From: an uncultured Bacteroidales bacterium
GTDB lineage: Bacteria; Bacteroidota; Bacteroidia; Bacteroidales; UBA10428
NCBI GenBank assembly: GCA_964618645.1
Contig: CAZUBW010000001.1
Location: 83,236 to 147,235 of the forward strand
Length of the DNA stretch: 64,000 nt
Direction: 5' to 3'
Part shown: in pieces, positions 7,278-52,806 of the stretch
How positions within the stretch are numbered: the stretch's first letter is position 1
Layout of the letters: the number at the start of each line of letters is the position of its first letter
The notes under the pieces: generated by a model
What the model was told of the DNA's origin: nothing
Seen by the model: only the letters and a program-made list of their open reading frames with translations
Databases searched by the model: none
Made by a program: the position numbers and the translations under genes

Positions 7278-7287
7278 TCTTCCCATT

Positions 7288-8520
7288 ATGATCATAGAGG
7301 TAAAAATACCATCGGCCGGTGAATCGGTAACTGAGGCAGCTATAGGAAACTGGATTTCGGCAGACGGTTCATATGTCGAAAAGGACGAGGAACTTGCTGA
7401 AGTAGAAACCGATAAGGCCACATTGCCGCTGATAGCGCCCGAATCGGGACGTTTAACCATTCGCGTTAAAGCCGGACAAAAGGTTAATGTAGGCGAAGTG
7501 GCCTGCACCATTGACACAGATTCCGTCAGTGACAGCCCAGTAAAAAAAGAAGTCGTAACCGAGCCCCAGCCAGCACCTCCCGCTGAAACGGCCAGCGATC
7601 TGTCAAAGCATAATGAAGCAGAACTATCTGCCATAAAAACAACCCCACTCGCCAGGAGCATGATGCAGGCACATAACCTGAGCATTGACGATATCATTAA
7701 CGGACTCAGGAAGATAACACGCCAGGAGGTAGAAATGGTGGTCAAACAAACAATGGCAGCGAAACCGGGACCGGTCATTTTTAAGGACGAACGCGAAACC
7801 GAGCGGAAAACCATGAGTCCCCTACGCCGGAAACTCAGCAAACGACTGGTTGCCGTGAAAAACGAAACCGCCATGCTTACCACTTTTAACGAGGTGGACA
7901 TGAGTCGGGTAATGCAGCTGCGAAAGCAATACCAGGAACGCTTTATTGCCAGATACGGACAGAAACTGGGTATGGTATCTTTTTTTGCTAAAGCTACTAC
8001 CCTTGCTTTGAAGTTATTCCCCAGGGTTAATTCAATTATTGACGGCGATGATGAAATTATTCCCAAATATACCGATGTTGGTATTGCCGTTCAAACAGAT
8101 AAGGGCCTTATGGTGCCTGTAATCCGGAATGCCCATTTGCTGAGTCTTCCCCAAATTGAATTACAAATTGCCGCTTTAGCCGAAAAAGCAAGGGCTTCAA
8201 AACTATCTATCGAAGAGATGACCGGTGGTACCTTTACCATAACCAATGGCGGCATTTTTGGTTCCATGCTTTCAACGCCAATCCTTAACCCCCCGCAATC
8301 GGCCATTCTGGGTATGCACAATATTGTTGAGCGTCCGGTAGCCATAAACGGCACTGTACATATCCGGCCCATTATGTATGTGGCACTTTCATATGACCAT
8401 CGTATGATCGACGGACGCGACTCGGTGGGATTTCTGGCAAAAATCAAAGAACTTTTGGAAGAACCGGTAAAAATGGCTGTTGACCCCCTGGCTTCCGACG
8501 AGTTTCTGCTGGGATTATGA
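7288..8520 (+). CDS. sucB: dihydrolipoyllysine-residue succinyltransferase (2-oxoglutarate dehydrogenase E2)
   Basis: Lipoyl domain with VETDKA, an Ala/Pro linker, an E3-binding segment, and a catalytic domain ending in SYDHRMIDG. Starts 10 nt after sucA. Confidence 0.92.
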
Positions 8521-8627
8521 TTTTGCTCTTTGGCAAACCCAAAAAGTTTTGCTATATTTATATAATCCAAAATACCCGCAAGCGCTGAGTAAACCGTGTG
8601 ATTTTTGTGCAGTTAACAGTTGCTGAG

Positions 8628-11600
8628 ATGTTAATCAATCCTAAGTTGTATTTACTGATCTGCTTTTTAATGCTGGGTTTAACAGGCAGTTTTTCGCAGC
8701 CCCCTGATTTACAGTTTCATTATTTTTCGAGATCCGAAGGAGTTTTTAATTCTTCGATTTATGCTGTAAACCAGGATTCAACCGGGTATATATGGATTGC
8801 CACCCGCGATGGGCTGTACCGGTATGATGGCTATGAATTTGTTTTATACACGGCACGGCAAAACGATTCGGCTTCCCTACCCAGCAAAAGCGTTAATTGT
8901 CTTTATACCGACTCAAAAAACAGACTCTGGGCAGGTACATCTTTGGGTGTTGCCTTATACGAAGCTGACCAGGATCATTTCATTCGGGTCGCAGATAATC
9001 GTGATGGAGCAGGATTGTCAGATCTGAGCATCAATCAGATTGGTGAAGCCCCCGATGGTTCAATATTGGTTTGCAGCAGCAGCGGAATTTTCAGTTACGA
9101 TGAAGAAAACAAAATCTTTGTATCCTATATTCAATTAGAAAACACTCAAATAAACCACTTTGTAGTTGATAAACCTGATGTGATATGGCTTGCCTGTTCA
9201 GCAGGCCAAGGGTTGGTCAAATACTACATCAAATCGGGCAAATGGGATAAAGTGCTTGCTGCAGGAAATTACCCGCCCTTGCATGCCGACATCAGTTACC
9301 TTGCCCTGAACGGCAATTCATTATACCTGGCCACCCTTGGTGAGGGACTTAAAATGTACAATACAGAAACCGGTAAACTCCAACATTACCACTATAACAA
9401 TGCAGATGAAGCTATGGTGGTTTCTGTCTATATCGACAGGGAAGGAAACGCCTGGTCGATTGACCATACAGGCCTGAAATTTGTCGACGAGAATACCGGA
9501 TATTTGTTCGGTTACTACCCAAACTTCGAAATCTCCGGCACTGTCAGAGCTAATGCCAAAAGAATATTTCAGGACAGGCAGGGCAATTACTGGGTAAACC
9601 ACGATCCGGGAGGCGTGGGTATTAGTGTAGTAAGGAAGGGATTCAGGCATTACAGCCATTCCGGCAGCCAACCCTGGATCACTGAAAACTCCAGTATTAC
9701 CGCATTATGCGAAGATATGAACGGCAGTCTCTGGATTGGTTATCATACAGGGGGAATTGACATTTTCGAATGGCAAACAGGCAGCGTCAAAAGGTTACGG
9801 CATAACCCAAACAACAAATCCAGCCTTGGCAGAGGAAGCATACTTTGCTTATATCGCGACAGCCATGGTACCATGTGGGCCGGAACCTATTTCGACGGGC
9901 TGCACCGGTATGATGAAAAAACCGGCAGGTTTATTCATTACAGCCACAATCCTGCTGACAATTCCACCATTGCAGGAAATGATGTGCGTTCCATTGTTGA
10001 GGACAACGATGGTAATTTATGGATCGCGATACATGGAAAAGGAGTGGATAAATTCGACAGAAAGCTGCAGCAATTCATCCATTACAGTAATGCCTCCGGC
10101 AACCTTTCAAATGACTGGACTTTCCAGGTTATTATTGACCATGTGGGTGACCTTTGGGTTGCCACCTCGTGGGGATTAAACCGGCTCAGGAAAGGACAAA
10201 GAACTTTTGAATCCTGGCTCAATAACATTGATGATAGCACCAGCCTTATCAATAACCTGGTTAATACACTTTATGAGGACGATAGAAATAATCTTTGGAT
10301 TGGCACAGCTTCAGGGCTTTGCAGGTATGACAGGCACACCGGCTTTATGGTGCATTACCCGCAGGTCCTGGGCAACCTGAACATATCCGGGATAGTAAGT
10401 GATAACGATGGTCTTATATGGATCAGCAGCCTCCACGGGCTTACCAGGCTAAATGCGGATGATAATTCGGCAATAACATTCACATCCGACGATGGCTTAT
10501 TGTCAGATGAGTTTAATCCACGTTCACTTTACAAAAACAACAAAAACGAACTTTTCTTTGGCGGCACCAAAAGCATTGAGGTATTCACTTCAGACGAGCT
10601 GGAATACAATACAATTCCCCCTGCCATTATCATCGACAGGATTAAAATATTCGACAGGGAACTTACCCCTGCAAACTCGGATATCCTGAACAAACACATC
10701 AGCAGAACCAGCAAAATAGTGCTCAGGCATCAACATAATAATATCACCCTTGGATTCAAAGCGCTTAATTTTATTAATCCGCATGCAAACCGTTATGCCT
10801 GTTTCCTGGAGGGATTCGACAAGAGCTGGCAGCAAAAGGGGACATCGCGGGAAGCCGTTTATACCAACCTCGACCCGGGCAGGTACACTTTCAGGGCGAT
10901 TGCATCAAATAACGACGGTTATTGGAATATGAAAGGTGCAAAGCTCGAGATTGTAATTCTTCCGGCCTGGTATGCTACGCTTATCTTCAGGTTGCTTTTA
11001 GCCGGCCTGCTGGCGCTGGCGGTATTCGGATTTATCCGGTTGCGGACAAAAAATTTACAGAAACAGAAAATACTCCTGGAAAAAGCGGTACAGGAAAAAA
11101 CAAAAAACCTGGCTGAAGCCAATCTTGAGTTGCAAAAACTTAACGCCACCAAGGACAAATTATTCTCAATCATTGCACACGACTTGAACAGTCCCTTTAA
11201 TACCATTCTGGGTTTTTCCGAAATGCTGGCTACCCGCTATGAAACCTTGAGCGATAAAGACAAAATGGTCTTTGCCAAAGCCATCAACTCCTCCTCCGAA
11301 AGAGTGCATGTACTGCTGCAAAATCTCCTGTTATGGACACGTTCGCAAACCAGCCAGATCAAGCCATATCCCGAGAATACTGACATACCTGCTATTTTAA
11401 AAGAAATATCAGCCCTGGTTAAAGAGACCCTGAAAACCAAACAGATCACCCTTGAAATTATCTGCCCGGAAACCATTACCGCCTGGGCTGACAAAGAAAT
11501 GGTTAAGACCATATTGCGCAATTTGCTGAGCAATGCCATCAAATTCACACCTAAAAACGGAAACATAATCGTGCGCGTTGAAGATACAGATTCACACATT

Positions 11601-40381: not shown

Positions 40382-42325
40382 CTACTGAAAGGGTACAAGG
40401 GTTGGTTTTTGCGGAAAAAATCCGGTAAATCTTTCTTTGGGTATTCCGTCGATGATCAGGTTGCTTGCGTTGGCTTCGCCGGGTTTACCCGGATAAATGC
40501 CCAACCTCAGTACAAAGGTATCGAAAACCAACTGATCGTTTCTTAATCTCACGCCCACGCTAACGCCCGAGTAGAGATGGGATTCCTCGATCCTGTCGCT
40601 TTCTCCTGCCACCAGCGCCAAATCGATACTGCCAAAAAAAGCAAACCGGAATCCCAGTAATACATAAGGGCTGAAAAATACCGATTCGAAATTAAGCACC
40701 AGTTTTTTACTTCCTCTCAGCCTATAAGAATCAGAAAGTCCGGTTATACCTTCCTTATCGGCAATGGTGGTATACTCACCCATATACCGTTCAATACCAT
40801 CAAGATAAGTAAGGTTGATAAAATTCCTGTACTGAAATCTTTGCTGACGATGCAGGGCTGAGAAAAAGTGAAGCCGCGAGCTGAAAGTTCCCTGTTCGGT
40901 CTGGTTTTTATTAAGAAAGGTTCCGAATCCGAGCTGACCCGAAACGTAAGCGCCATTGTTGAAATAACTGCCGAAGGATCCGCCAACAGCAAAATACGAC
41001 CTGGTTTTGTATTCTCCCCACTCCACTCCTGCTGTAAAGTCGATGCGGTATCCATAAGGTACGTCCTCTGTGCGGCCAAAAGTATGGATAAGATTATCTT
41101 TTCTGAACCCCTGATGTGAAAATCCTGTGGAGAATAATAGCATCGTACGGTCCTGAAAGGCATGCAGGTACTGCTCATTTGTTGCCGGACCCTTGCTGAT
41201 TTCAAACTGATTCAACCGGCCTGTCAGGAAAAAGCCTTCTCCCGGCTTGTGTAATGGCAGGAAATGACCGACCCAGAAGTCAATGTTATTATAGGCCAAT
41301 GACACATCGGACAGTGTTGTATCCATTAGTTCAATGTTTCGTATGGCTGAGGTATTCTCAAAGGTCATTCCGCCGGCGTTACGAAAACTGCTTGTTCTGA
41401 AATCCCTTGACAATCCCATCGTCAGCGTTTCCTGGTTCCATTTATGAATATAATCAGCAATCCCCCTTGCATAAGTTCCGGCAACATTTTCCATGCCATA
41501 AGCCAGTCGATAGCCCAGATGGGGATGATGAGCCACGTCCCAGTATGAGGTTGCAGTTATCCGGTGGCCTCTTCCCAATACATTGTGATGCGTAACGCCC
41601 AGGTTTACCTGCGATGAACTGGCAATTTCAAGCTCAATGCCCAGTGGTATCCTGTCCTGTGTAACCAGCAACAAATCAATCGAGTCACTGCTTCCCGGTA
41701 CCCGTTTGGCCATAAAACCTGCGTCCATAATAAACGACAATTCCCTAAGCATACGCTCATTCTCAGCAATAACAAAAACGTCAAGCCTGTCGCCCGGATG
41801 AAATAACAAATAACGCTCAAGAACCTGTTTCCGGGTCCCTTTGTGTACCGATTCAACAGTTCTTTCGAGCCAGTTTGCAGAAACATGGCCGGTATCAAAC
41901 ACCGAAGGTGCAAACAGGTTTACATTCTCAAATTGAATGCTATGGATGATGCATCCGTCCATTGCCGCCATAATAGCGTTGTTAGCGGGAGATAGTGCTT
42001 TCGGAAGCGTACGGTTGAATAATAAACTATGAAGCTCCCTGATGATTCGTGAGTTGCCGTTTCGCAGCACAACACTGTCGATGGGTTTGTCGCGAATTTC
42101 CATCCAGGTTTGCATCAGGGGCGAGGGTAATCCGGATTTAACAAGGGTATCCTTTTTTTCCACCAATTGTTCAATTAACCCAAGAGAATCCGGACGCACT
42201 TCCTGTGCTGTGAGTACACCGGTGCCGCTAAATGCGGTCCATATAAGCATCAGGGTGGCAAAACAAGCATTCCTGTTACAACCAAATGCGACAACCCTTA
42301 TTTTGCTTATGTTTTCAATAACCAT
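40382..42325 (-). CDS. Omp85/TpsB-like outer-membrane beta-barrel protein with a single POTRA-like domain
   Basis: Signal-like N-terminus, a POTRA-like segment (IIHSIQFENVNLF...VLERYLLFHPGDRLDVFVIAENERMLRELSFI), then about 450 aa of alternating beta-strand pattern rich in G/Y/F. Start uncertain (42325 or 42379). Confidence 0.5.
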   Translation of the reverse strand: MVIENISKIRVVAFGCNRNACFATLMLIWTAFSGTGVLTAQEVRPDSLGLIEQLVEKKDTLVKSGLPSPLMQTWMEIRDKPIDSVVLRNGNSRIIRELHSLLFNRTLPKALSPANNAIMAAMDGCIIHSIQFENVNLFAPSVFDTGHVSANWLERTVESVHKGTRKQVLERYLLFHPGDRLDVFVIAENERMLRELSFIMDAGFMAKRVPGSSDSIDLLLVTQDRIPLGIELEIASSSQVNLGVTHHNVLGRGHRITATSYWDVAHHPHLGYRLAYGMENVAGTYARGIADYIHKWNQETLTMGLSRDFRTSSFRNAGGMTFENTSAIRNIELMDTTLSDVSLAYNNIDFWVGHFLPLHKPGEGFFLTGRLNQFEISKGPATNEQYLHAFQDRTMLLFSTGFSHQGFRKDNLIHTFGRTEDVPYGYRIDFTAGVEWGEYKTRSYFAVGGSFGSYFNNGAYVSGQLGFGTFLNKNQTEQGTFSSRLHFFSALHRQQRFQYRNFINLTYLDGIERYMGEYTTIADKEGITGLSDSYRLRGSKKLVLNFESVFFSPYVLLGFRFAFFGSIDLALVAGESDRIEESHLYSGVSVGVRLRNDQLVFDTFVLRLGIYPGKPGEANASNLIIDGIPKERFTGFFPQKPTLVPFQ

Positions 42326-42441
42326 CCTGATCTGTATCAGACAGTGTGAAAGAATTCTCTTAGCCCGCAAAATTAACATTTTTTAAAACACATCATTTTT
42401 TTAATTTCTTTTGATCAACCAAGTGTTGTAACTAATTTCAT

Positions 42442-43538: not shown

Positions 43539-46115
43539 TCATTCAACCCTAAACCGGAAATAACGTTCTACAGGATTTCCATCTGCGTCAATTCCGGTAA
43601 GGTGTCCCTGGAAAACTCCTTTGATATCAGATGTGTAAAAACTTATCAGTACAACATTTGCCTTGTTCATTGTAATCTTCGGATTCCAATACAATGTTTT
43701 CCGGTTATCTGACGATGCAGAGCTCTCAATGGAATAATCAGGAGAGTAAAACTCTCGCCCTGAATTCAGGATGTTCGTCCCAATCTGTAACTGCGGCTGC
43801 CTGTATCGATACATACCCTGAATGGTGGTAATTTCAATTACACCCCCGAAGTTGAGCGGTGTATATTTGTGAATATCCAGCAGCGACTGTGATATGTTTA
43901 TATTGGTAATGTCCGAAGGAATAAGACTCCTGAGCATGTCGGCCTGGTTACCCTTTAATGAACCGTTAATGACTATGATGGCTTCACCAGGTTTTACAGA
44001 ATCGATGTACTGCCTGTTCTCTGTAAAGAATATTTTGTTATCCCTAATGATGCAGGGCTTAATATCCTGGATTATATCAATAACATCGGTATAATTGGCA
44101 TATTGATTCGGGTCGTACTTTTTTCGCGATTCTTTTGCCGTTTTCCGGAATTTACCCGGTCCATACCGGAGTTCGTAAACCAGGTCGGGCTCGCCATAAG
44201 TTAAAAGGTCCTGTACTTTTAGTTTATGCAGATGTTTTGTATCTTCAGTCAACGTCTTTGCTACTTCCCGGGCGTAAACCTGGTCGGTCTCAGCATTCAG
44301 ACTGGTTTTGCCGGTGGCATCATAGGCTTCAATGTTTAGATATTTAAAATCAACTATATCCGTTCCAAATAGTACATTAAAATAACCTGTTTCATCGGAC
44401 TGGGTTTCGTAAGACCGGTAATTGGGGAAATGAGTAACCCTTATTTTGGCCAGTTGTGCAGTGTTTTCTTTTTTATCCGTTACACGACCGGATAATCCAT
44501 TGTGGCAAACATACGGCTGCCTTTCACTGTCCGCCGCCAATACCTCGCTCCAGTCAACTATTTTGTAATGGGTGGTAAGCAGTTCAATATCAGAGGGCGA
44601 TTTGGAGTCCAACGACGACGGGGAGATTGTATCGCATGGATCAGCATTAATAACCTGGTAAAAGTCACGGGTTGAGCGGTTACCGGACAAACGATCCAAC
44701 GACACTGCCATTGCCAGGTTATTTACCTTGCTGTTACCGGGATATTCAATAAGAACGTTCACCCGCTGCCGATTGCGGTAGATCTGATGGTCGGTTTTGA
44801 TTGCCAATGCCTCATGCAGCGTTTTTGCCTTTAAGAGTCGATCAGCCAGAAGTATTCCCCGTGAATCAAATAACGAGACTTGCATGATACCGGTAGAGGC
44901 CGGAACCAATGGAACAGTAACCAACGTGTCTCCACTGTAGGATAATCTGTAATTCCAGACGATCTGAGATTCCGATACGGCAACCAGGTATTGTGTCCGG
45001 TGTTGATTTCCTGTACTGGCTATATACAAATCAGCAGAATCAGCATTATTATCCATCAGCCGCATGATGGTGCCTTCGTTTTGAGCCATAGGTAAAGCAA
45101 CAATCATCTCCGGGTTCTCCGGTAAGTCAATTTTCAGGTATGATGTATCATTTCCCGGCGTATACATGAATGTTGCCAAACCATTCACCCCGGTTCGTAT
45201 ACGATGCAGAACATTGCCCCTGGCATCTGTAATTTCACCACGGATCATTTCGGGTAATCCGTATGGGTTCATCGCTTTAATGGCAAGGGTATTTTCCATT
45301 CCGATGACCAGATTACCGCCTTCGGGGAAAAACTCAACAGCCGGTTTTTCGGATGATGTCGGAATAAGTAAGGTATAATCACCTGAATAGCGGCGGTTTC
45401 TTATGGCAATACCAAGCATCATTATGCCATTGCCGGTTGGTACTTCAAATTGAATACGTGTTTTGCCCTTTACATCGGTATTACCTGTTCCCCTGATTTC
45501 AGTTTTGCCGAAAGTACCAACTGAATATTCATAATGCACATTCGGAACAACTTTTCCGGCAGGATCAGTAATAATGGCCACCGCGCTTAATGTGTCGCCC
45601 GCAGCGTACACGAGCTTGTCATAGAGCACTTCAACGTGAAAACGCTTTTCAAAATACCTGCTTACCAGTATTTCCTTCCTGTAAACTTCCCGTGGGCATT
45701 GGTTTTTCATCCAACCTGAATAAGCCACCAACCAGTATTTGCCGGGGATAGTTGATTTGGGAATCAGCAGGCGTCCTTCGGACTGATTGTCTATCAATGG
45801 ATAACGCCTGTAGATGATTTCTTCGCCATTTGTATTTAACAGTTTGATGAAGTAGTCATCTCCAAAAGACTGTGTTGAACCATATGCCGGAACAGTGACA
45901 TAACCCTTAAACCATAGGTCCTCACCTGCCCTGTATACAAATCTGTCGGTCATCAGATAAGCCTTTTGGGCAAAGAAGTGCTCATGATAATACCTGAGCT
46001 TTTGGGCTAATCCGGAAAAAAACAGGTCATCCGGAGACATTTCCCTGCTTGCTGGCAAAATCGTCAGCAGCGCAAAGACAGGGAAAAGTATCGGATTGAA
46101 TTTGGTTTTTATCAT
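43539..46115 (-). CDS. large secreted protein with MG2 (alpha-2-macroglobulin-like) N-terminal region and a Plug-like C-terminal segment; no beta-barrel
   Basis: Signal peptide; MTDRFVYRAGEDLWFKGYV (MG2-type motif); C-terminal VINGSLKGN...ITNINISQSL...GGVIEITT (Plug-like) and RKTLYWNPKITMNKANVVLISFYTSD. Last gene of the sigma/FecR operon. Confidence 0.5.
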   Translation of the reverse strand: MIKTKFNPILFPVFALLTILPASREMSPDDLFFSGLAQKLRYYHEHFFAQKAYLMTDRFVYRAGEDLWFKGYVTVPAYGSTQSFGDDYFIKLLNTNGEEIIYRRYPLIDNQSEGRLLIPKSTIPGKYWLVAYSGWMKNQCPREVYRKEILVSRYFEKRFHVEVLYDKLVYAAGDTLSAVAIITDPAGKVVPNVHYEYSVGTFGKTEIRGTGNTDVKGKTRIQFEVPTGNGIMMLGIAIRNRRYSGDYTLLIPTSSEKPAVEFFPEGGNLVIGMENTLAIKAMNPYGLPEMIRGEITDARGNVLHRIRTGVNGLATFMYTPGNDTSYLKIDLPENPEMIVALPMAQNEGTIMRLMDNNADSADLYIASTGNQHRTQYLVAVSESQIVWNYRLSYSGDTLVTVPLVPASTGIMQVSLFDSRGILLADRLLKAKTLHEALAIKTDHQIYRNRQRVNVLIEYPGNSKVNNLAMAVSLDRLSGNRSTRDFYQVINADPCDTISPSSLDSKSPSDIELLTTHYKIVDWSEVLAADSERQPYVCHNGLSGRVTDKKENTAQLAKIRVTHFPNYRSYETQSDETGYFNVLFGTDIVDFKYLNIEAYDATGKTSLNAETDQVYAREVAKTLTEDTKHLHKLKVQDLLTYGEPDLVYELRYGPGKFRKTAKESRKKYDPNQYANYTDVIDIIQDIKPCIIRDNKIFFTENRQYIDSVKPGEAIIVINGSLKGNQADMLRSLIPSDITNINISQSLLDIHKYTPLNFGGVIEITTIQGMYRYRQPQLQIGTNILNSGREFYSPDYSIESSASSDNRKTLYWNPKITMNKANVVLISFYTSDIKGVFQGHLTGIDADGNPVERYFRFRVE

Positions 46116-46136
46116 GATATGATTGATTTTGCTAAA

Positions 46137-47777
46137 TTATTCCTGGTCAGCATCCCGCGCTTGTTCATCATCTTCAGGCAATTCTTTTTCGGAGATCCTT
46201 TGCTCTTCTTTTTCTTCGTCTATACGAATGGCCTGAATTTCCCGTTCGGTAAAAAGTGTATTTCTCTTGCCAAGCCTGGTGATTGCCTTTTCCAGGGGCT
46301 CTTCCGGGATAATGATGTTCTCATCCCCCCAGAATTCCTGGTCGGTTTCGCCAATCTGTTTCTCCAGCACATCGCGTGGCTTTGAGACTTCTCCGGTTTT
46401 AAACCGTACAATATTAACGGTATCCTTGCTGGTGATCACAAACTCAGAAACCGACGAAAACACTGAGTTGAATTTATCCTGACGCTTGTCTTTTCGCCTT
46501 CTGACCCTCATGGTGACTTCACTGCGTGCATTGCTCAAATTCCAGCGGCTGTTATACAACCGGTAATAAACCTCATATCTTGCACTCAAGGGCTTAACCC
46601 CGGTTCGCCGTGGGGTTTTTCTTACATAGGTTCCTGCTGCATAACTCATTTCGTTTTCAGGAAGCTCAAAAGAGGCCCCTACAATGGCCAGGGTTTCGAC
46701 ATCAATGAATAACCTGCCTTTGTAACAGGGATACTTTACACCTTCGCGCTGATCAAAGGCAATCACGTATGTCAGCCTGTTGAAATGCGTAATTACCTTT
46801 TCGAGCTGGTATTCATACAGGGCAAAGTAATCGGCATCCAGGAAGGTAGGTTTGTTTTTCACGATATCAAGCTGCAGCGTGTTGTACAAACCTCCCTCGA
46901 CAATAAAATCAACAAACTCCTTTTCATCGGTGTTGCTGCCTTTCCTTCCCTTGAATATTTTAATCTGGTCGTCCCTCACTGAAGTGCAAGGTTCTTTATA
47001 AACCGTAATCACTGCTTCGGAAAGCGATACGTTTTTATTGTCCTGCCGGGTTGCCTCCCTGAAGAAACCGGTAAATACAGCAGCTTTCCGGTCGTAATTG
47101 TCAACAATTGACTCCATGGCTTTGGTAATGATATAAATAGGATCCATGGGTTTTACCACTATTTCCCTGATCTGCATACGTTCGGCTGAAAGTCTTACTA
47201 CCAGGATCCCTGAGTCGACCTCACTGATGGGAATGATTTTCATTTCATAACCCATATGCGAAATACCCAGGGTGTCGAGAGCATCCCCAGGTCTCAGCTT
47301 AATTTCGAACCTCCCCGAAGCGTTGGCAATGGTACCCTTGCTTTGATTACGGAGGAATATGCTGCTATAAGGCAGGGGGCGGTGCGACCGGCTGTCGATA
47401 ACAATACCCCTGACAGACCGGAAAGCGGAAGTTTCAGGCAACCTGACTACTTTGGGTATGAGCAGGATTTTTTTATTTTGCTCAAGAATGGTTATACTGT
47501 CGTATCTAAAAATATCAGCAAGATGCTGTCTGACAGTTTGTTTGCGATGCAAAACCGAAGCCAACCGGCGTGTATCAATTTGGGAAGTATAGGTAAAGGA
47601 GAATCGTCCTTTACGACTGATGGCCTTCAACAGATCATCTATTTCACCGGTGGTATGCGGGATACTTATCTCACGATCGAGCAGGCCCTGCTGGGCCATA
47701 ACCGATATTCCCGTATTCAGAAAGAAAAGGATCAACAATACGGGAAACAAAACCTGGTATTTTTCCCGCAGACTCAT
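46137..47777 (-). CDS. STN (secretin/TonB N-terminal signalling) + carboxypeptidase-regulatory-like domain protein lacking Plug and barrel
   Basis: Signal peptide; STN-like ISIPHTTGEIDDLLKAISRKGRFSFTYTSQID...VRQHLADIF...KKILLIP; CarbopepD_reg VRGIVIDSRSHRPLPYSSIFLRNQSKGTIANASGRFEIKL; about 330 aa of unassigned domain; acidic tail. Starts 11 nt after the fecR stop. Confidence 0.55.
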   Translation of the reverse strand: MSLREKYQVLFPVLLILFFLNTGISVMAQQGLLDREISIPHTTGEIDDLLKAISRKGRFSFTYTSQIDTRRLASVLHRKQTVRQHLADIFRYDSITILEQNKKILLIPKVVRLPETSAFRSVRGIVIDSRSHRPLPYSSIFLRNQSKGTIANASGRFEIKLRPGDALDTLGISHMGYEMKIIPISEVDSGILVVRLSAERMQIREIVVKPMDPIYIITKAMESIVDNYDRKAAVFTGFFREATRQDNKNVSLSEAVITVYKEPCTSVRDDQIKIFKGRKGSNTDEKEFVDFIVEGGLYNTLQLDIVKNKPTFLDADYFALYEYQLEKVITHFNRLTYVIAFDQREGVKYPCYKGRLFIDVETLAIVGASFELPENEMSYAAGTYVRKTPRRTGVKPLSARYEVYYRLYNSRWNLSNARSEVTMRVRRRKDKRQDKFNSVFSSVSEFVITSKDTVNIVRFKTGEVSKPRDVLEKQIGETDQEFWGDENIIIPEEPLEKAITRLGKRNTLFTEREIQAIRIDEEKEEQRISEKELPEDDEQARDADQE

Positions 47778-47788
47778 TTTCAGAAAAA

Positions 47789-48799
47789 CTACTTCCTGAC
47801 AATAAGTGCGGTTCCTGTTGTATCAAATTTCAGGCCGGCAACCAACTCAAGCTCCTTGAGAATTTCGTGCAATGGTTGATCCTGAAACTCTGCCGTAATT
47901 TTTTCCAGAAGAATAACATCAAAGGAAAGGTCTCTGTGAAAATGCCTGGCTATATCCACAATAGCTGAATCTATTGGCGTCTGATCAAAACTAAGGTGAC
48001 CTGTTTTCCACGAAAGAGCGTTTACCGGGATCCGATCCTCGACATGTATTTCGTTGTTATGATGTAAATAACCCGACTGATTGGCTTTCAGACTGATTTT
48101 TCGTGCAATGCTGTCGGCCGAAGAAAGCAAAACGGTTCCGGATAACACTGACACCTGTATCATACCGTTTATCTCGCATACTGCAAATTCGGTTCCGGTA
48201 ACCTCAATGACAGATTCACCGGAATATACCCTAAAAGGCCTGGAAGGATCACGTACTACTTTGAAAAGAGCCTCACCTTCAAGAATTACCTCCCGGGCAT
48301 TCTTTCCAAAATCGTCACGCAGGGTCAAATCCGATCCGGCATTAAGATTAACCGAAGATCCGTCGGGTAAAACAAACTGCTGCAATTTCTGCGGTGCCTG
48401 ATAGGTAATAAAACCCGTGGCTGTTTCGGGTTGCTTATGCGTCAACACCAAACGGTAGAACCCGTATGAAAGACCGAAGGTCAATGCCAGCAAAGCAGCA
48501 ACACGCAGAAAATATGAGGTAAGGGGAATTTTCCGGTAATTCAGGCTAACGGGAATATCAAGCCGGGCGCTTACCTTTTTCCAATCGGCATGGGTATCAA
48601 TTTGTTCAAAAAGCTGTAATCGTGCAGCCTCATTCCAAATATGCTGCATGAACCTGTACTCATCCAGCACTTCCGGATGCCGGGTAGCCTTACGGCGAAG
48701 TTCCTGCCCGTCAGCCACATCAACTTTTTCCAGAAGCATTTTTGTAATTAGGTCTCTATGCATTTTTGGTAATTCCATACTGAATCGTTTATATGACAT
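47789..48799 (-). CDS. FecR-family anti-sigma / signal transducer
   Basis: Cytoplasmic N-terminus, one TM (FLRVAALLALTFGLSYGFY), and a periplasmic FecR domain (LPDGSSVNLNAGSDLTL...EGEALFKV...PFRVYSGESVIEVTGTEFAV). Confidence 0.85.
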   Translation of the reverse strand: MSYKRFSMELPKMHRDLITKMLLEKVDVADGQELRRKATRHPEVLDEYRFMQHIWNEAARLQLFEQIDTHADWKKVSARLDIPVSLNYRKIPLTSYFLRVAALLALTFGLSYGFYRLVLTHKQPETATGFITYQAPQKLQQFVLPDGSSVNLNAGSDLTLRDDFGKNAREVILEGEALFKVVRDPSRPFRVYSGESVIEVTGTEFAVCEINGMIQVSVLSGTVLLSSADSIARKISLKANQSGYLHHNNEIHVEDRIPVNALSWKTGHLSFDQTPIDSAIVDIARHFHRDLSFDVILLEKITAEFQDQPLHEILKELELVAGLKFDTTGTALIVRK

Positions 48800-48890
48800 T
48801 TAAGTTATGAAATTCACTTACTTTTTTTCCCTTCCAACTTATAAACAGTTCATTAACATATTGAATATTTGTTTGTTAATAAATAAGTTT

Positions 48891-49361
48891 TTAACACTGG
48901 CGGATTTTCCCTTCCGGGAAATAATCTGACAATCGCTTGCGCAGAATTTTCAATGCTTTACTGATTTGGGTCTCGACTGTTCGTTTCGACAAATTCAGTT
49001 GTGTAGCAATTTCCTCATTTTTGATGCCCTCAAGACGGTTCATTTTGAATATTTTCCGGCACCGTGCAGGTAATTCTTCAATTACCTGGTGAATACGATA
49101 TTGCAGTTCAACAGAACTGATTTCACTCTCCAGGTTATCTTCATCTACGCGTTCAAGGTCGATACTTTTCAGATGTTTGTCCTGTATGCTGCGTTGGTTC
49201 AAATAATTCAGGCAACAATTATATACCGAACGGTACAAATACGATTTCACCGAAGTTTCAACCGACAGGTTATGCCTTTTTTCATATAGCTTCACAAAAA
49301 AATCCTGGACAATCTCACGTGCAATATCCATGTTGGTTACATACTTGTATGCATAAACCAC
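48891..49361 (-). CDS. ECF-type sigma-70 factor; conserved region 2 continues in frame upstream of the first canonical start (possibly to 49448)
   Basis: Region 2 AREIVQDFFVKLYEK and region 4 LPARCRKIFKMNRLEGIKNEEIATQLNLSKRTVETQISKAL. The only canonical start is GTG 49361, but LDEFEELFKRFYTPL lies in frame 5' of it (see findings). Confidence 0.75.
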   Translation of the reverse strand: MVYAYKYVTNMDIAREIVQDFFVKLYEKRHNLSVETSVKSYLYRSVYNCCLNYLNQRSIQDKHLKSIDLERVDEDNLESEISSVELQYRIHQVIEELPARCRKIFKMNRLEGIKNEEIATQLNLSKRTVETQISKALKILRKRLSDYFPEGKIRQC

Positions 49362-49557
49362 CAGGGGCGTGTAAAACCGCTTGAAAAGCTCCTCGAACTC
49401 ATCTAAGTTACCGGGATTTGAAGATGATATTGAATTATTTGTAATGATATTAAGGGGTTATAGATAAGGTTACAAAAAACAAATCTACAAAAAAGCAATT
49501 ATAAAATGCCTGTTTTACCAAAAGAACCAAAATTGTTGAATCGTTGAACAGAACGAT

Positions 49558-49565
49558 TATCTTTG
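49558..49565 (+). promoter_or_regulatory. candidate promoter for pgl: -7 box TATCTTTG with TTG 19 nt upstream (49536-49538)
   Basis: Exact TAnnTTTG plus a -33-like TTG at canonical spacing, 96 nt upstream of ATG 49661. Confidence 0.45.
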
Positions 49566-49660: not shown

Positions 49661-50872
49661 ATGAAAACCTGTCACCGCATGCTGCTATTCGCCTTATTAC
49701 CTGCAATTATGACTGGATGTACTTCACGAACAGGACAAAAGGAAGCCGAAACAGGCGTTCATGCCGATGCTGCAACAAATAATCCAATGTTATTATATGT
49801 AGGCACCTACACCCGTAAAGAAGGGCACGTAAACGGCAAAGCAACCGGTGTTTATGTTTACCGGATGGACACCGCAACCGGTGCACTCGAATATGTAAGC
49901 GCTTCGCCTTCAACTACAAACCCATCCTACCTGGCCATCGAACCTGGTGGCCGGTTTTTGTATGCCGTAAATGAAACCGGAAGCAATAACCCTGATTCCT
50001 CCGGGACAATCACTGCTTTTGCACTGAAGAACGGAGGCCGGGATCCCGTCTTTATAAACAGCGTACCTTCTGCCGGCAATTACCCCTGCCACATTATGGC
50101 CGATCAAAAGGGGAAATGGCTGGTGGTTTCGAACTACGGAAGTGGCAATAACGCCCTATTCCCCATTGAACCCGATGGTCGAATCGGAATGTTTGTTGCT
50201 GCGGACCAGCACACTGGCAAAGGTCCAACACCCAGGCAACAGCAACCACATGCCCATATGGCAGTAATATCGGCCAACAACAAATTTGTGTATACCTGCG
50301 ACCTGGGAACTGACCGTATATATGTCTATCGGTTACATACAAGCACGGATAAGCTGGCCCCTACCCCGGGTAATTATCATACCCAACCCGGAGCCGGCCC
50401 GCGCCACATGGTTATGCATCCCAACCTGCAAACTGCCTACGTGGTTAATGAGTTAAACGGAACCATCGAAAGTATGCATGTAGATACGGTATCGGGAAAG
50501 CTCAGCCGTTTTCAGGTCATTGCCACACTTACCGACGGAAACCCCAATGAAGCTTCGTGTGCCGATATCCAAATTACCCCATCGGGAAAATTCCTCTACG
50601 CCAGTAACAGAGGTACCTATAATACCATTGCCATGTATGCCATCGACGAAGTGAATGGAGAGCTCACCTGGCTTGGCAGCCAGCACGTGAAAGGAAAAAC
50701 ACCCCGCAGCTTTGCTATCGACCCCACAGGGCAGTTTCTATTGGTGGCCAATCAGGATTCGGATAACATTGTAACATTCCGCATACATCCTGAATCGGGG
50801 AAACTAATGGAAACCGGTGTTGAATCCAACGTGCCCACACCTGTTTGCCTGAAATTCATGCCCCGGCTATAA
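49661..50872 (+). CDS. pgl: 6-phosphogluconolactonase, 7-bladed beta-propeller lactonase family (lipoprotein)
   Basis: Lipobox IMTGC; YVGTYT start; repeated ..NPSYLA.., ..PCHI.., GAGPRHM, PRSFAIDP blades, as in YbhE-type Pgl. Confidence 0.8.
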   Translation: MKTCHRMLLFALLPAIMTGCTSRTGQKEAETGVHADAATNNPMLLYVGTYTRKEGHVNGKATGVYVYRMDTATGALEYVSASPSTTNPSYLAIEPGGRFLYAVNETGSNNPDSSGTITAFALKNGGRDPVFINSVPSAGNYPCHIMADQKGKWLVVSNYGSGNNALFPIEPDGRIGMFVAADQHTGKGPTPRQQQPHAHMAVISANNKFVYTCDLGTDRIYVYRLHTSTDKLAPTPGNYHTQPGAGPRHMVMHPNLQTAYVVNELNGTIESMHVDTVSGKLSRFQVIATLTDGNPNEASCADIQITPSGKFLYASNRGTYNTIAMYAIDEVNGELTWLGSQHVKGKTPRSFAIDPTGQFLLVANQDSDNIVTFRIHPESGKLMETGVESNVPTPVCLKFMPRL

Positions 50873-51315: not shown

Positions 51316-52740
51316 TTAACGCTCCTCAATACTGAAGATCTCATTTCGGTCGAATGTTTCCCAATACCGGATAGCCTTCATCCTGACAAGCTCCCAATAG
51401 ATGTCGCTGTCGAGTCCATAGATTTTTGTTAATTCCCTGATATCACCTTCGATTTTCTTCCGGATAGCATCGCGCAGGGTAACCCTGATGGTTCTGCTCA
51501 TATAGGTAAAATCAGCCATGGGCAGCCGTGAATCATCGGCGGATATTTTTATCAGCCCATGTCCCAGGGTGGCACCAGTACTTACCTGGAGTCCGTCATT
51601 CATGCAACTGAAAGGTGGTACAAGTCCGGCATAAGACAAAACTGTCATCTCATCAATGCCTGCCCTGAAGTATTCCTTTGCCCTCATACCCATTTTAACC
51701 CCAACAATGGCATAAATGCCCAAATGACGATGCATTTCGTTTGCCATAACCCCGGCAATCCATTCTTCCCTGCCGTATTTTTTCAAAGTATTATATGCAA
51801 TTTCCTGTATATCGTGGTAATAGTAAGCTGTATCCATCGGGAAAAACTCCAGTACCTGATTGTGATTAAAGGTTTCACCCAGAAATATACTCTTGCAGGC
51901 ACGATGCACTTCTTCAGCAGTGGTGGATGCGTGTAACTGATAACCAATCATCTTGTTCACTGTATCACGCCTGAAAAGCAAAGGAAAATGCAGGAACAGG
52001 GCCACCGATTCATCAAAAAATGCCTTTGAATAGGGTGTTTCTTTAATAGTCAGGCTTTCAATAACCTTTTGTGCATGAATAAGGGGAATATCCCCGATTA
52101 TGCCCGTAAAATGATCGTCGTAGCGGTTAAAAGAGGTAGCATTTACCAGCACCAGCGGAAGGTTATGAGCTACCACTGCGGATACAGAGCCAGTGTCGAT
52201 GTTGTAATTAAAATTGCCGGAGTTTAAGTCAAAACGATTGCTCCAGATAACCTGTTCCACCTGCTCAGTGAAACCTTTATGAAGCTGAGATATAGCATGA
52301 ACGCTGCTTAACCCACCCAGGCACAGAAAATCGATCTTCTCACCTTCCAGGTTGTCAAGCACTTTACCCACCAGCAAAATTGCATCGGGAGGTGCCAGGG
52401 TATCGGCATACCTTGTACCCCAGTCGAAGTCACGCGCCGGCAAACAACCCTTATTCGCTGATTGTTGACCATAAAAACAGCCAACTGGTAAACCCTGGTG
52501 ATGAAGATCATTGAGCAGACTTTTTACCTTATGGTAAGTGGTGCGGGCATCCAGTACGCCATCGGAGGTAGTTATGGCCAGTACCCTTATATCGGGCGAT
52601 GCCAGCAACATGCAAATGGTACGGAAATCGTCCAACCCGCCATCGGTATCAATAATCACATAATGACCCGATTTCCAGGGATGTGCCATCAAACTTAGCG
52701 GTAACAGCGCCAGCATCAGCCAGAATAGACCCTTTTTCAT
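51316..52740 (-). CDS. secreted fusion protein: inosine-uridine nucleoside hydrolase-like domain + FmdE-like domain
   Basis: Signal peptide MKKGLFWLMLALLPLSLMA; IIDTDGGLDDF (the IUNH DTDxGxDD motif); C-terminal HRHLGIYAIVGVKMGMRA...SCMNDGLQVSTGATLGHGLI resembles the FmdE fold but lacks its usual Cys/His ligands. Confidence 0.55.
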   Translation of the reverse strand: MKKGLFWLMLALLPLSLMAHPWKSGHYVIIDTDGGLDDFRTICMLLASPDIRVLAITTSDGVLDARTTYHKVKSLLNDLHHQGLPVGCFYGQQSANKGCLPARDFDWGTRYADTLAPPDAILLVGKVLDNLEGEKIDFLCLGGLSSVHAISQLHKGFTEQVEQVIWSNRFDLNSGNFNYNIDTGSVSAVVAHNLPLVLVNATSFNRYDDHFTGIIGDIPLIHAQKVIESLTIKETPYSKAFFDESVALFLHFPLLFRRDTVNKMIGYQLHASTTAEEVHRACKSIFLGETFNHNQVLEFFPMDTAYYYHDIQEIAYNTLKKYGREEWIAGVMANEMHRHLGIYAIVGVKMGMRAKEYFRAGIDEMTVLSYAGLVPPFSCMNDGLQVSTGATLGHGLIKISADDSRLPMADFTYMSRTIRVTLRDAIRKKIEGDIRELTKIYGLDSDIYWELVRMKAIRYWETFDRNEIFSIEER

Positions 52741-52806
52741 GTGAAAAACATAATAGTGTGTTGCCAAGGTAATACTTTCCGGTTGAATACCAAATGGCGT
52801 TTTTAT

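Follow-up and report, generated by a model that had tools for sequence, protein, structure and literature searches.

How can a FecR-type anti-sigma factor be informed of events at the cell surface when the gene next to it encodes no transporter? FecR-type signalling has so far been understood as a by-product of TonB-dependent import, with the outer-membrane transporter acting as the sensor. The question is raised by four genes, encoding an extracytoplasmic function (ECF) sigma factor, a FecR-type anti-sigma factor, a protein of 546 residues, and a protein of 858 residues, which lie in a stretch of 64,000 nucleotides (nt) from an uncultured Bacteroidales bacterium of the UBA10428 lineage (GenBank assembly GCA_964618645.1, contig CAZUBW010000001.1, positions 83,236 to 147,235; this whole stretch is called the window below). 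An earlier reading of the sequence alone (the sequence-only reading) had proposed that the parts of a TonB-dependent transducer are redistributed here onto two proteins that have no barrel. The answer favoured here, to which we give about an even chance of being right, is that the four genes form a Bacteroidales-specific ECF-sigma/FecR operon in which a soluble periplasmic “transducer head” would replace the outer-membrane TonB-dependent transducer, in other words, a transport-independent variant of cell-surface signalling.

The Sigma/FecR Operon

The sigma, FecR, 546-residue, and 858-residue genes are four co-oriented open reading frames (ORFs) on the minus strand, each found where the sequence-only reading had placed it (Table 1), and their order is kept in every informative related locus. 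Because the gaps between them are only 91, 11, and 21 nt (in that order), the four genes form one operon. The first gene encodes a sigma factor of the FecI-like ECF family, with matches to region 2 (Sigma70_r2) and region 4 (r4_2) and to the Bacteroidota FecI-like model TIGR02985 (3.9e-46, 157 bits against a cut-off of 126). The second encodes an anti-sigma factor with the features of the FecR family, namely, a periplasmic FecR domain (PF04773, 2.4e-18), a FecR_C domain (PF16344, 1.3e-6), and a single transmembrane helix.

The 546-Residue Protein

The partner encoded directly downstream of FecR begins, as had been read from its sequence, with a signal peptide, and Gln29, which lies directly past it, is at least 90% conserved in the family. 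Gln at position +1 is typical of the substrates of signal peptidase I in Bacteroidota. The next part had been called STN-like, and this assignment holds. Pfam STN does not match the window copy on its own; it matches 41 of the 55 aligned N-termini of the family individually (best 2.6e-15), and the related FecR_C model matches 20 of these 55 segments. A profile of the N-terminal region of the family, when compared with the PDB, matches the PupA signalling domain (2a02) best and, next, the N0 domains of PilQ and a Bacteroides anti-sigma factor (its C-terminal domain). In a model of the protein obtained with AlphaFold2 (AF2) from a 46-sequence alignment, residues 36–108 form a beta-alpha-beta/beta-alpha-beta-beta unit with a predicted local distance difference test score (pLDDT) of 80–88, and Foldseek places this unit on the PupB signalling domain that was crystallised with PupR (6ovm_B; target-normalised TM-score (TMt) 0.72, root-mean-square deviation 2.3 Å, prob 1.0).

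The STN domain is followed by an N-terminal extension (NTE), a domain of the type that begins SusC transporters. This is the CarbopepD_reg domain of the sequence-only reading, and it gives the sole Pfam match of the 546-residue protein (CarbopepD_reg_2, PF13715; residues 122–208, 1.8e-11). The SusC model TIGR04056 matches the protein only over model positions 2–83 of 981, Foldseek aligns the domain with the NTE domain of the SusC structure 9hfj (TMt 0.81), and the family profile matches the SusC structures 8aa4, 9hfj, and 6ytc. Directly after the NTE comes the motif QIREIVVKP, which hmmsearch pairs with LDEVVVV, VDEVVVT, and LNEVVVS of three SusC structures. In BT1763, the equivalent position is occupied by 81-VDEVVV-86, an experimentally tested, functional TonB box that is unstructured in solution (PMC7782687). 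The motif is kept in all three subgroups of the family (as VQIxEVIVKP, IPLQEVIIR, and VQLKEITIRP) at an overall identity of ~30%, and AF2 predicts a flexible coil at residues 200–209 (pLDDT < 50).

Beyond this point, about 330 residues had been left unassigned, a description that can now be replaced: they comprise a probable domain of the LolA/RseB/MucB superfamily type (Foldseek E about 3e-7) and the tail. In the AF2 model, residues 213–450 form N-terminal helices and then ten long antiparallel strands with internal helices, and the top Foldseek matches other than those to the NTE all belong to the LolA superfamily (E 3e-7 to 2.5e-4, prob 0.98–1.0): MucB (6in9), RseB (2v43/3m4w), the LolA-superfamily protein NE2245 (3buu), a DUF1329 protein (4z48), and LolA3 of P. 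gingivalis (9tp6). The open beta-barrel with helical elements that characterizes the LolA fold is, in short, recovered by Foldseek on a model of moderate confidence (pLDDT 50–79), and the domain is probably LolA/RseB-like. No Pfam or NCBIfam model covers this C-terminal domain, and no type IX secretion system model of NCBIfam matches the protein (E up to 1). The acidic tail that had been noted is also present, with D or E at 16 of the final 46 residues, and its sequence varies among orthologs.

Two relatives, P0241 (901 aa) and P0256 (627 aa), each have two stretches that match the LolA-like domain, possibly the outcome of a tandem duplication.

Neither Pfam nor the profile nor the AF2 model reveals a plug or a barrel in the 546-residue protein, there is no TonB_dep_Rec match, and the protein is too short and too charged to conceal a TonB-receptor barrel. 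Judged from its sequence and its predicted structure, it is an exported soluble chain consisting of an STN domain, an NTE, a TonB-box-like motif, and a LolA-like domain, the last of which is most likely the sensor of the system.

The 858-Residue Protein

The AF2 model of the second partner (pLDDT 80, predicted TM-score 0.72) consists of beta-sandwiches and a small alpha/beta plug and contains no barrel; the absence of a barrel from both large proteins, which the sequence-only reading had claimed, is thus borne out by the AF2 models and by the lack of any TonB_dep_Rec match. In its N-terminal part, the model has the export signal, a helix, macroglobulin (MG)-type sandwiches up to about residue 473, and then a helical linker; in its C-terminal part, it has a sandwich (541–610), two helices, an alpha/beta domain (663–764), a disordered loop, and a four-strand sandwich (807–857). 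A Cys occurs within the first 35 residues in only 2 of 26 close members of the family.

The MG2-like N-terminus that had been proposed is supported by Pfam (Table 1), and Foldseek extends it to an array that resembles the MG ring of C4/C3/C5, of TEP1, and of the E. coli and Salmonella alpha2-macroglobulins (E 1.7e-21 to 1e-16; TMt about 0.49 for the C3 beta-chain). The array is present without the thioester of the alpha2-macroglobulin family: the CGEQ motif is absent, and neither Pfam nor the AF2 model has a thioester domain (TED), a CUB domain, or a receptor-binding domain.

The Plug-like segment near the C-terminus was likewise upheld, this time at the level of the family. Pfam Plug does not match the window protein taken alone; the family profile matches the plugs of the SusC structures 5t3r and 6zlt (3.2e-10 and 4.8e-10) and those of Cir, FepA, and PirA, with the hallmark strands PSDITNINI and GGVIEITT aligned, and Pfam Plug is found in 10 of 54 members (best 6.9e-9). 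The preceding CarboxypepD_reg-like domain (PF13620) is found in 32 of the 54 (best 3e-7), and the order of CarboxypepD_reg, linker, and Plug parallels that of the SusC N-terminus. Between the two lies KVQDLLTYGEP, a region that the family profile pairs, weakly, with VDEVVVTGY of SusC; it is poorly conserved (family consensus D....G.P), and AF2 predicts it to be helical. The C-terminal sandwich is probably an MG/A2M-type domain, and in the distant relative P0231, there is a Pfam A2M match (PF00207) at its position. NCBIfam (E up to 1) has no family at all for this protein, and in the PDB, direct searches with the sequence of either large protein meet only domain-level or chance matches. By its domain matches and its predicted fold, the 858-residue protein is an exported, alpha2-macroglobulin-like MG array that lacks a thioester and has an NTE–Plug insert.

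Distribution and Cassette Types

A scan that took one genome for each of 185,579 species found 159 relatives, and 80 loci were fetched. The relatives of both large proteins come from uncultured Bacteroidales/Bacteroidia only, and the existing names of homologs are limited to “carboxypeptidase-like regulatory domain-containing protein” or “hypothetical”. Two types of cassette can be distinguished. Type A, that of the window clade (>50% identity to the 546-residue protein), consists of sigma, FecR, the STN protein, and the MG/Plug protein, an order that is kept in all 32 loci with enough downstream DNA, unrelated neighbourhoods included. Type B (about 30–35% identity; loci L038–L083, e.g., L050 at about 6800–11400) consists of an STN-less paralog (NTE plus LolA-like domain), sigma, FecR, and the STN protein. 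The co-occurrence of homologs with sigma/FecR on which the sequence-only reading depended is strict: FecR directly precedes all 75 STN-bearing members for which enough upstream DNA is available and none of the 39 STN-less paralogs. Because the presence of the STN domain tracks adjacency to FecR so closely, this domain is, on its distribution, the device that couples the protein to FecR. The N-terminus of the 546-residue protein proved to be an STN domain, neither protein hides a barrel, and homologs do accompany sigma/FecR, so that the three points at which the sequence-only reading had said that it could fail all went its way.

This distribution also bears on another explanation, in which both proteins are mainly output of the sigma factor (such as periplasmic anti-protease or envelope-maintenance proteins), FecR itself or an unlinked transducer senses the signal, and the STN domain does no more than feed back the amount of product made. 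Both genes share a transcript with sigma and FecR (the gaps measure 11–91 nt), like SusC/D in the Bacteroides switches, in which the transducer is both sensor and product (PMC2709373); bacterial alpha2-macroglobulins, which the MG array resembles, are periplasmic defence proteins; and the STN-less paralog of type B sits behind a constrained ECF-type promoter (see below). Moreover, since STN-less paralogs, the fusion protein P0322 (see below), and distant MG/Plug proteins all exist without sigma/FecR, the modules have a function of their own. Nevertheless, we consider this explanation unlikely. The STN domain is found only on the copy that follows FecR, as if this copy were made for communication with FecR; all STN domains that have been characterised on FecR partners are parts of sensors; and MG arrays fused to anti-sigma domains (see below) suggest sensing and not output alone. 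The roles of sensor and output are, in any case, not mutually exclusive.

The extent of conservation is relevant to a third explanation, that both ORFs are functionless leftovers of a SusC-type transducer gene. Both do carry pieces typical of SusC N-termini, but they are conserved at full length in 159 species-level genomes and thousands of metagenomic clusters, with many invariant residues (in the 546-residue family, spread along the whole length) and with confident folds, and the LolA-like domain and the MG array are contents that no SusC has. The conservation data therefore effectively refute this explanation, to which we attach almost no probability. An exhaustive search with the LolA-like domain as the sole query recovered 1,155 clusters at 50% identity, with protein lengths in two groups, about 505–545 aa and about 417–436 aa, which fit the presence and the absence of the STN domain; a search with a profile of the domain recovered at least 5,915 clusters at 90% identity.

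The relation between the two partners is clarified by P0322, a natural fusion of 1,325 residues in which an NTE and a LolA-like domain are joined to a full-length MG/Plug protein. It occurs on four contigs from at least two samples (L087 7001–10978 and L088 5141–9118). Its LolA-like part is 36% identical to the window domain (E 8e-36), and its MG/Plug part is matched by BLASTP (5e-32 and 9e-07) and by Pfam MG2, CarboxypepD_reg, and Plug. P0322 has no STN domain, and no sigma/FecR lies upstream. Given this fusion, it is very probable that the LolA-like module and the MG/Plug module work together in physical association.

Three other proteins were considered as fusions and set aside: for P0190 and P0186 (about 1200 aa, with CarbopepD_reg_2, MG2, and Plug), hhalign paired only the CarbopepD_reg domain, and P0234 was negative as a fusion of the window proteins.

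A second kind of fusion is found among distant relatives of the 858-residue protein. P0231, P0237, P0238, and P0240 (1,000–1,250 aa) have an N-terminal zf-HC2 anti-sigma domain and an MG array (MG2, A2M, and, in one of them, A2M_BRD). These proteins look like anti-sigma factors with alpha2-macroglobulin-like periplasmic sensors, and, since MG relatives are fused to zf-HC2 domains in this way, MG arrays recur as periplasmic or sensor parts of ECF switches.

What, then, became of the proposal that a transducer has been divided between two non-barrel proteins? The STN, CarbopepD_reg, MG2, and Plug parts are present and split as proposed, but the split is not the conserved essence of the system because type B has an STN-less paralog rather than the MG/Plug protein and because distant MG/Plug relatives (~800 aa) stand alone, with no sigma/FecR beside them. 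The same data address the possibility that both proteins belong to a multi-component TonB-dependent transporter, as its periplasmic parts, with the barrel encoded at another locus, so that the Plug of the 858-residue protein would occupy a plug-less barrel and uptake would still trigger signalling. No conserved barrel gene adjoins the cassette across about 80 loci, type-B cassettes have no Plug protein of any kind, and the Plug core lies deep in a chain of beta-sandwiches, unlike the plug of transporters, which is near the N-terminus. Such a transporter is quite unlikely, even though the two proteins jointly hold an STN domain, an NTE, TonB-box-like motifs, and a genuine Plug core, and even though one distant MG/Plug relative (a single case) adjoins a SusC/SusD pair.

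A Proposed Mechanism

In the mechanism proposed here, the cytoplasmic N-terminus of FecR would hold the sigma factor, and the periplasmic STN domain of the 546-residue protein would bind FecR_C and so shield FecR from proteolysis. This step would have parallels in the signalling domains of transducers in Pseudomonas and in the action of RseB/MucB on RseA/MucA. A cue would be perceived in the LolA-like pocket, as a ligand that is hydrophobic or lipidic, by the MG/Plug partner, or by both. Perception would alter the contact between the STN domain and FecR, perhaps with the help of a TonB pull on the exposed TonB-box-like strand; degradation of FecR would then release the sigma factor. The pathway would report a periplasmic or envelope condition rather than uptake through a barrel. 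That the trigger is something other than uptake, as the sequence-only reading had suggested, is plausible.

The individual steps have precedents. The N-terminal transducing domains of SusC proteins bind anti-sigma factors at their C-terminal domains, and truncation of the anti-sigma factor's periplasmic domain de-represses the system (PMC2709373). The FoxA signalling domain binds FoxR when the signal is lacking and shields it from proteolysis (PMC11637429). In the Fec system, force exerted by TonB via the TonB box frees a C-terminal fragment of FecR, which leads to a cleavage cascade (PMC12036975). RseB and MucB are LolA-like periplasmic protectors of RseA and MucA that are released upon outer-membrane dysfunction or lipid signals (PMC12036975; PMC7400510).

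What might the cue be? The anatomy of the two proteins suggests either a lipidic ligand, as in RseB and LolA, or the attack of a protease on the alpha2-macroglobulin-like partner; the S9 and M3 peptidase genes that follow some type-B cassettes (see below) provide circumstantial support for the latter. Because both large proteins keep a SusC-type TonB-box-like motif directly after the NTE, TonB may still take part, even if uptake through a barrel does not. A bolder version of the mechanism would make the system a TonB-energised, transport-independent sensor composed of the LolA/RseB-like pocket and an MG partner with its Plug at the position equivalent to the bait. Here, the cue (a mislocalised lipid or lipoprotein, or an invading protease) would expose the TonB box, and TonB would pull away the STN domain with the attached C-terminal fragment of FecR, thereby releasing the sigma factor. 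This version strikes us as improbable.

The Missing Start Codon of the Sigma Gene

An important question concerns the activity of the system in the window lineage itself. All intact orthologs of the sigma gene start with ATG or TTG, 17–21 codons before the FExLF motif of region 2.1. In the window, the region 2.1 sequence runs in frame beyond the GTG at 49361, up to 49457, where the open frame is bounded by a TAA stop (49458–49460, minus strand); the position of the TTG start of several orthologs is occupied by CTT (49454–49452, minus strand). Translation from the GTG would drop region 2.1. The absence of a start is not an assembly error because an independent, near-identical strain from another sample (L089) has the same start-less sequence. 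In-frame ATC and ATT codons lie 2–3 codons past the ancestral start position, and the window sigma would be made either by non-canonical initiation at these codons or, from the GTG, as a product without region 2.1; its translation is probably compromised or non-canonical.

Is the system, then, real in the relatives and decaying in this lineage? The loss of the ATG/TTG start and its recurrence in a second sample are what such decay would predict. However, the FecR gene and both large genes are intact, the 546-residue protein is 100% and the 858-residue protein 97% identical between samples, the sigma frame is open and conserved upstream of the GTG, and ATC and ATT could be weak non-canonical starts. 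Decay in the window lineage is in our view quite improbable, and it would bear on the activity of the switch in one lineage, not on the identity of the system.

Promoters and Other Regulatory Sequences

Upstream of the sigma gene, the sequence TAGATTTG is tentatively taken as a Bacteroidota housekeeping −7 promoter element of the form TAnnTTTG. The same block, TTTT[TC]GTAG[AC]TTTGT, recurs in at least 9 orthologs, where its distance from the start codon is −27 to −33, and the operon of the window lineage is probably driven by a housekeeping-type promoter. The candidate accords with the housekeeping priming of ECF/anti-sigma genes that has been described in B. thetaiotaomicron (Martens 2009, PMC2709373). 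Scans of the cassette for promoters and terminators of the E. coli type yielded nothing above the expectation from shuffled sequences.

Type-B operons are preceded by a tightly constrained, bipartite motif of the ECF type, TAGGGT-N14-nCATCT. TAGGGT is present in all 39 type-B loci; the strict pattern occurs 24 times, at that position only, and its spacer is 14 nt in 23 of the 24.

A second TAnnTTTG-type element lies between the sigma and lactonase genes (49540–49560), where it reads CAAAGATA on the sigma-sense strand and TATCTTTG on the plus strand; the same 8-mer is present in 16 of 32 orthologous upstream regions. On the plus strand, this element probably serves the divergent lactonase gene (49661–50872). 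In type B, a long hairpin, AAAGCGCTGTCTG ... CAGACAGCGCTTTTT, is conserved between the STN-less paralog and the sigma gene (e.g., in L048, L050, and L063), with compensatory changes between loci (GCGCTG/CAGCGC versus GCACTG/CAGTGC) and no Rfam match. The motif TTGTGTAACTTTACC lies inside the loop of the hairpin, which measures about 45 nt. The hairpin could be a terminator or an attenuator, or it could enclose an internal promoter. An Rfam search of the window cassette and two type-B loci gave no matches.

Comparison with Known Systems

With the TonB-dependent transducer systems (FecA-FecR-FecI of E. coli, PupB-PupR and FoxA-FoxR of Pseudomonas, and the SusC-like systems of Bacteroides), the cassette shares a FecI-like sigma factor, an anti-sigma factor with FecR and FecR_C domains, and an immediately downstream STN partner that continues, as in SusC, with an NTE and a TonB-box-like motif; with the transducer switches of B. 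thetaiotaomicron, it also shares housekeeping-type priming of the promoter, if the candidate found here is correct. It differs in that the partner has the STN domain with neither a plug in the same chain nor a 22-strand barrel and has a LolA/RseB-like soluble domain instead, and in that the sole Plug core is in the second protein, embedded in an MG array. Because the soluble domain takes the place of plug and barrel, the 546-residue protein cannot import a substrate. The domain order may also differ: the STN domain precedes the NTE in the 546-residue family, whereas Gray et al. place the NTE before the STN domain in SusC transducers (PMC7782687). The SusC model TIGR04056 has the NTE at its start, with the TonB box and plug immediately behind. 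No canonical STN-bearing SusC was found in the window or in the ~1.2 Mb of fetched loci with which this order could be compared.

The RseA-RseB system of E. coli (sigma-E) and the MucA-MucB system of P. aeruginosa (AlgU) are alike in having a soluble, LolA-like periplasmic protein within a sigma/anti-sigma operon, and structurally, the 546-residue protein's C-terminal domain is matched best by RseB and MucB. They bind the periplasmic part of the anti-sigma factor, block its site-1 cleavage, and are released by lipid or lipopolysaccharide signals. However, no sequence similarity is detectable between RseB/MucB and the cassette domain, the anti-sigma factor of the cassette is of the FecR type rather than the RseA type, and its presumed anti-sigma-binding element is the STN domain, whereas that of RseB is the small C-terminal domain. 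The RseB/MucB systems have no counterpart of the NTE, the TonB-box-like motif, or the MG/Plug partner. The cassette resembles cell-surface signalling at the level of sigma, FecR, and STN, it is RseA-RseB-like in its soluble LolA-like co-regulator, and it is a member of neither class.

The second partner is comparable to the alpha2-macroglobulins (ECAM/YfhM of E. coli, A2M of Salmonella) and to C3/C4/C5/TEP: about 430 N-terminal residues superpose on MG1–MG6, the protein is periplasmic by its export signal, and its C-terminal sandwich is probably of the A2M/MG type. It differs in having no thioester domain, CGEQ, CUB domain, or receptor-binding domain and in being less than half as long. In linear order, its CarboxypepD_reg and Plug insert appears to lie roughly where the alpha2-macroglobulins have the bait region and linker.

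Within the phylum, DUF5686 proteins (PF18939) usually have the same preceding CarbopepD_reg_2/NTE domain, and the C-terminal domain in the 546-residue family gives weak collinear matches to DUF5686 positions ~126–242 of 669. About 400 further positions have no counterpart in the 546-residue family, and DUF5686 has no known function or reported link to FecR. A large homology search with a profile of the LolA-like domain, directed at proteins annotated as DUF5686, returned the 546-residue family only, so the link is weak. The Dma anti-sigma family resembles the cassette as a Bacteroidota-specific form of ECF signalling without a TonB-dependent transporter as the sensor. It was ruled out as a relative because of its different design, with an ECF21-type sigma factor and an anti-sigma factor that itself bears the barrel and reaches the outer membrane; here, an ordinary FecR is accompanied by a separate soluble STN protein. 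Full-text searches of the literature found no account of a barrel-less STN partner of FecR, of an MG2-Plug protein, or of the function of DUF5686.

Points That Weigh against the Proposal

Several observations weigh against the proposal of a soluble transducer head, or against parts of it. The first concern the LolA-like domain: its region of the AF2 model is of moderate confidence, the TM-scores normalised to the targets are low (about 0.24–0.32; 0.24–0.29 for RseB), Pfam LolA_like gives only sub-threshold matches in four relatives (E 3.7e-3 to 6.5e-3), P0241 and P0256 being among their sources, and a profile of the domain finds only chance matches to kinases in the PDB. The DUF5686 matches are likewise below the threshold (best 23.2 bits, E 2.8e-5, against a cut-off of 39.2) and come from 5 of 47 members, the window protein not among them. 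The TonB-box-like motif falls inside the span of the Pfam CarbopepD_reg_2 model, and its conservation could be structural and not related to TonB. Type-B cassettes have no MG/Plug gene, and a signalling role of the MG/Plug protein is consequently not universal. As regards expression, neither the window nor the type-A loci have the ECF-type promoter of type B, bar chance intragenic matches on the wrong strand; there is no canonical sigma start within the 20 open codons upstream of region 2.1 in the window; and, owing to this loss, the switch may be weakened or inactive in the window lineage. Finally, the carriers are all uncultured organisms.

Features and Neighbouring Genes

The coordinates of the cassette features are collected in Table 1.

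Table 1. Features of the sigma/FecR cassette, in window coordinates.
Feature	Coordinates	Strand	Basis or remark
Candidate housekeeping −7 element (TAnnTTTG), TAGATTTG	49480–49487	−	33 nt upstream of the ortholog sigma start position
ECF sigma gene, Bacteroidota FecI-like type	48891–49457	−	Frame open from 49457; sole canonical in-frame start is GTG at 49361
FecR-type anti-sigma factor gene, 336 aa	47789–48799	−	PF04773 and PF16344
FecR cytoplasmic N-terminal part	48545–48799	−	
FecR transmembrane helix, residues 97–115	48455–48511	−	Hydrophobic segment FLRVAALLALTFGLSYGFY
FecR domain	48131–48391	−	PF04773
FecR_C (STN-like) domain	47801–47995	−	PF16344
546-residue protein gene	46137–47777	−	ORF
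Signal peptide, 546-residue protein	47694–47777	−	Conserved hydrophobic N-terminus, then A-Q; ends ...VMA-QQ; no lipobox
STN domain, residues 33–110	47448–47681	−	AF2 topology, Foldseek, Pfam STN in family
NTE/CarbopepD_reg_2 domain, residues 120–198	47184–47420	−	PF13715, TIGR04056, Foldseek, profiles
TonB-box-like motif QIREIVVKP, residues 202–210	47148–47174	−	Directly after NTE; SusC alignment
LolA/RseB/MucB-superfamily-like domain (probable), residues 213–450	46428–47141	−	Foldseek on AF2 model
Helical/acidic C-terminal tail, residues 451–546	46140–46427	−	Low-confidence AF2, pLDDT mostly < 50
858-residue protein gene	43539–46115	−	ORF
Export signal or signal anchor, 858-residue protein	46041–46115	−	Hydrophobic segment, position conserved; no lipobox
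MG beta-sandwich array, residues 47–473	44697–45977	−	PF01835, AF2 pLDDT about 85–94, Foldseek
Pfam MG2 (PF01835), residues 51–131	45723–45965	−	9.5e-10, above cut-off
CarboxypepD_reg-like domain, residues 541–610	44286–44495	−	PF13620 at 1.1e-3; AF2 beta-sandwich
Weak TonB-box-like stretch KVQDLLTYGEP, residues 633–643	44187–44219	−	Between CarboxypepD_reg and Plug core
TonB-dependent-receptor Plug core, residues 663–764	43824–44129	−	Family profile, Pfam Plug in relatives
C-terminal beta-sandwich, residues 786–858, motif DNRKTLYWNP	43542–43760	−	AF2 four strands, pLDDT 80–92

The genes that flank the cassette are unrelated to it and differ in orientation; they encode a convergent LPG-synthase-like membrane protein, the divergent lactonase, an RF-1-domain protein, a nucleoside hydrolase/FmdE protein, and a GAF protein. 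The LPG-synthase-like gene is adjoined by an ORF of 665 aa (40382–42379, minus strand) to which Pfam gives no match; in the syntenic locus L001, its counterpart is called as two genes (430 and 225 aa), again with no Pfam matches. The nucleoside hydrolase/FmdE protein (51316–52767, minus strand; 483 aa) has both an inosine-uridine nucleoside hydrolase domain and an FmdE domain, an uncommon pairing that is also present on the near-identical contig L089.

In some sub-clades of type B, peptidase genes on the same strand follow the cassette (e.g., L050 11456–13348, L057 8518–10542, and L078 9766–11886): a gene of the S9 prolyl-oligopeptidase family comes immediately afterwards in 7 loci, and an M3 oligopeptidase gene is found further on in 6. 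Also downstream of the type-B STN protein are a Crp-like regulator (13 loci) and an uncharacterised protein of 415–480 aa (7 loci). In L006, the MG gene and, in L037, the STN-protein and MG genes (and apparently the sigma gene) are broken into several frames; since the “contig_” names in these MAGs suggest long-read assemblies, such interruptions probably stem from indel errors left uncorrected and not from pseudogenes.

Significance

The cassette belongs to a large, conserved, and uncharacterised family, the FecR-linked members of which carry the signalling head of a transporter on a soluble LolA/RseB-like domain. One practical consequence is a warning for annotation, in that matches to STN, CarbopepD_reg, or Plug do not imply a TonB-dependent receptor. 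If the proposal is true, two large groups of proteins, those called “carboxypeptidase-like regulatory domain-containing” and the hypothetical MG/Plug proteins, would gain their first functional context. The TonB-energised version, if true, would be the first case of an STN/TonB-box signalling head that works without an outer-membrane barrel, and the logic of FecA-FecR would be merged in it with that of RseB-RseA. More generally, control of FecR by STN would have been separated from transport in a natural system, which would make it testable whether the STN domain protects the anti-sigma factor and whether TonB force is needed; and the Bacteroidota would gain an RseB-like route for sensing the state of the envelope, a route that is undescribed for that phylum.

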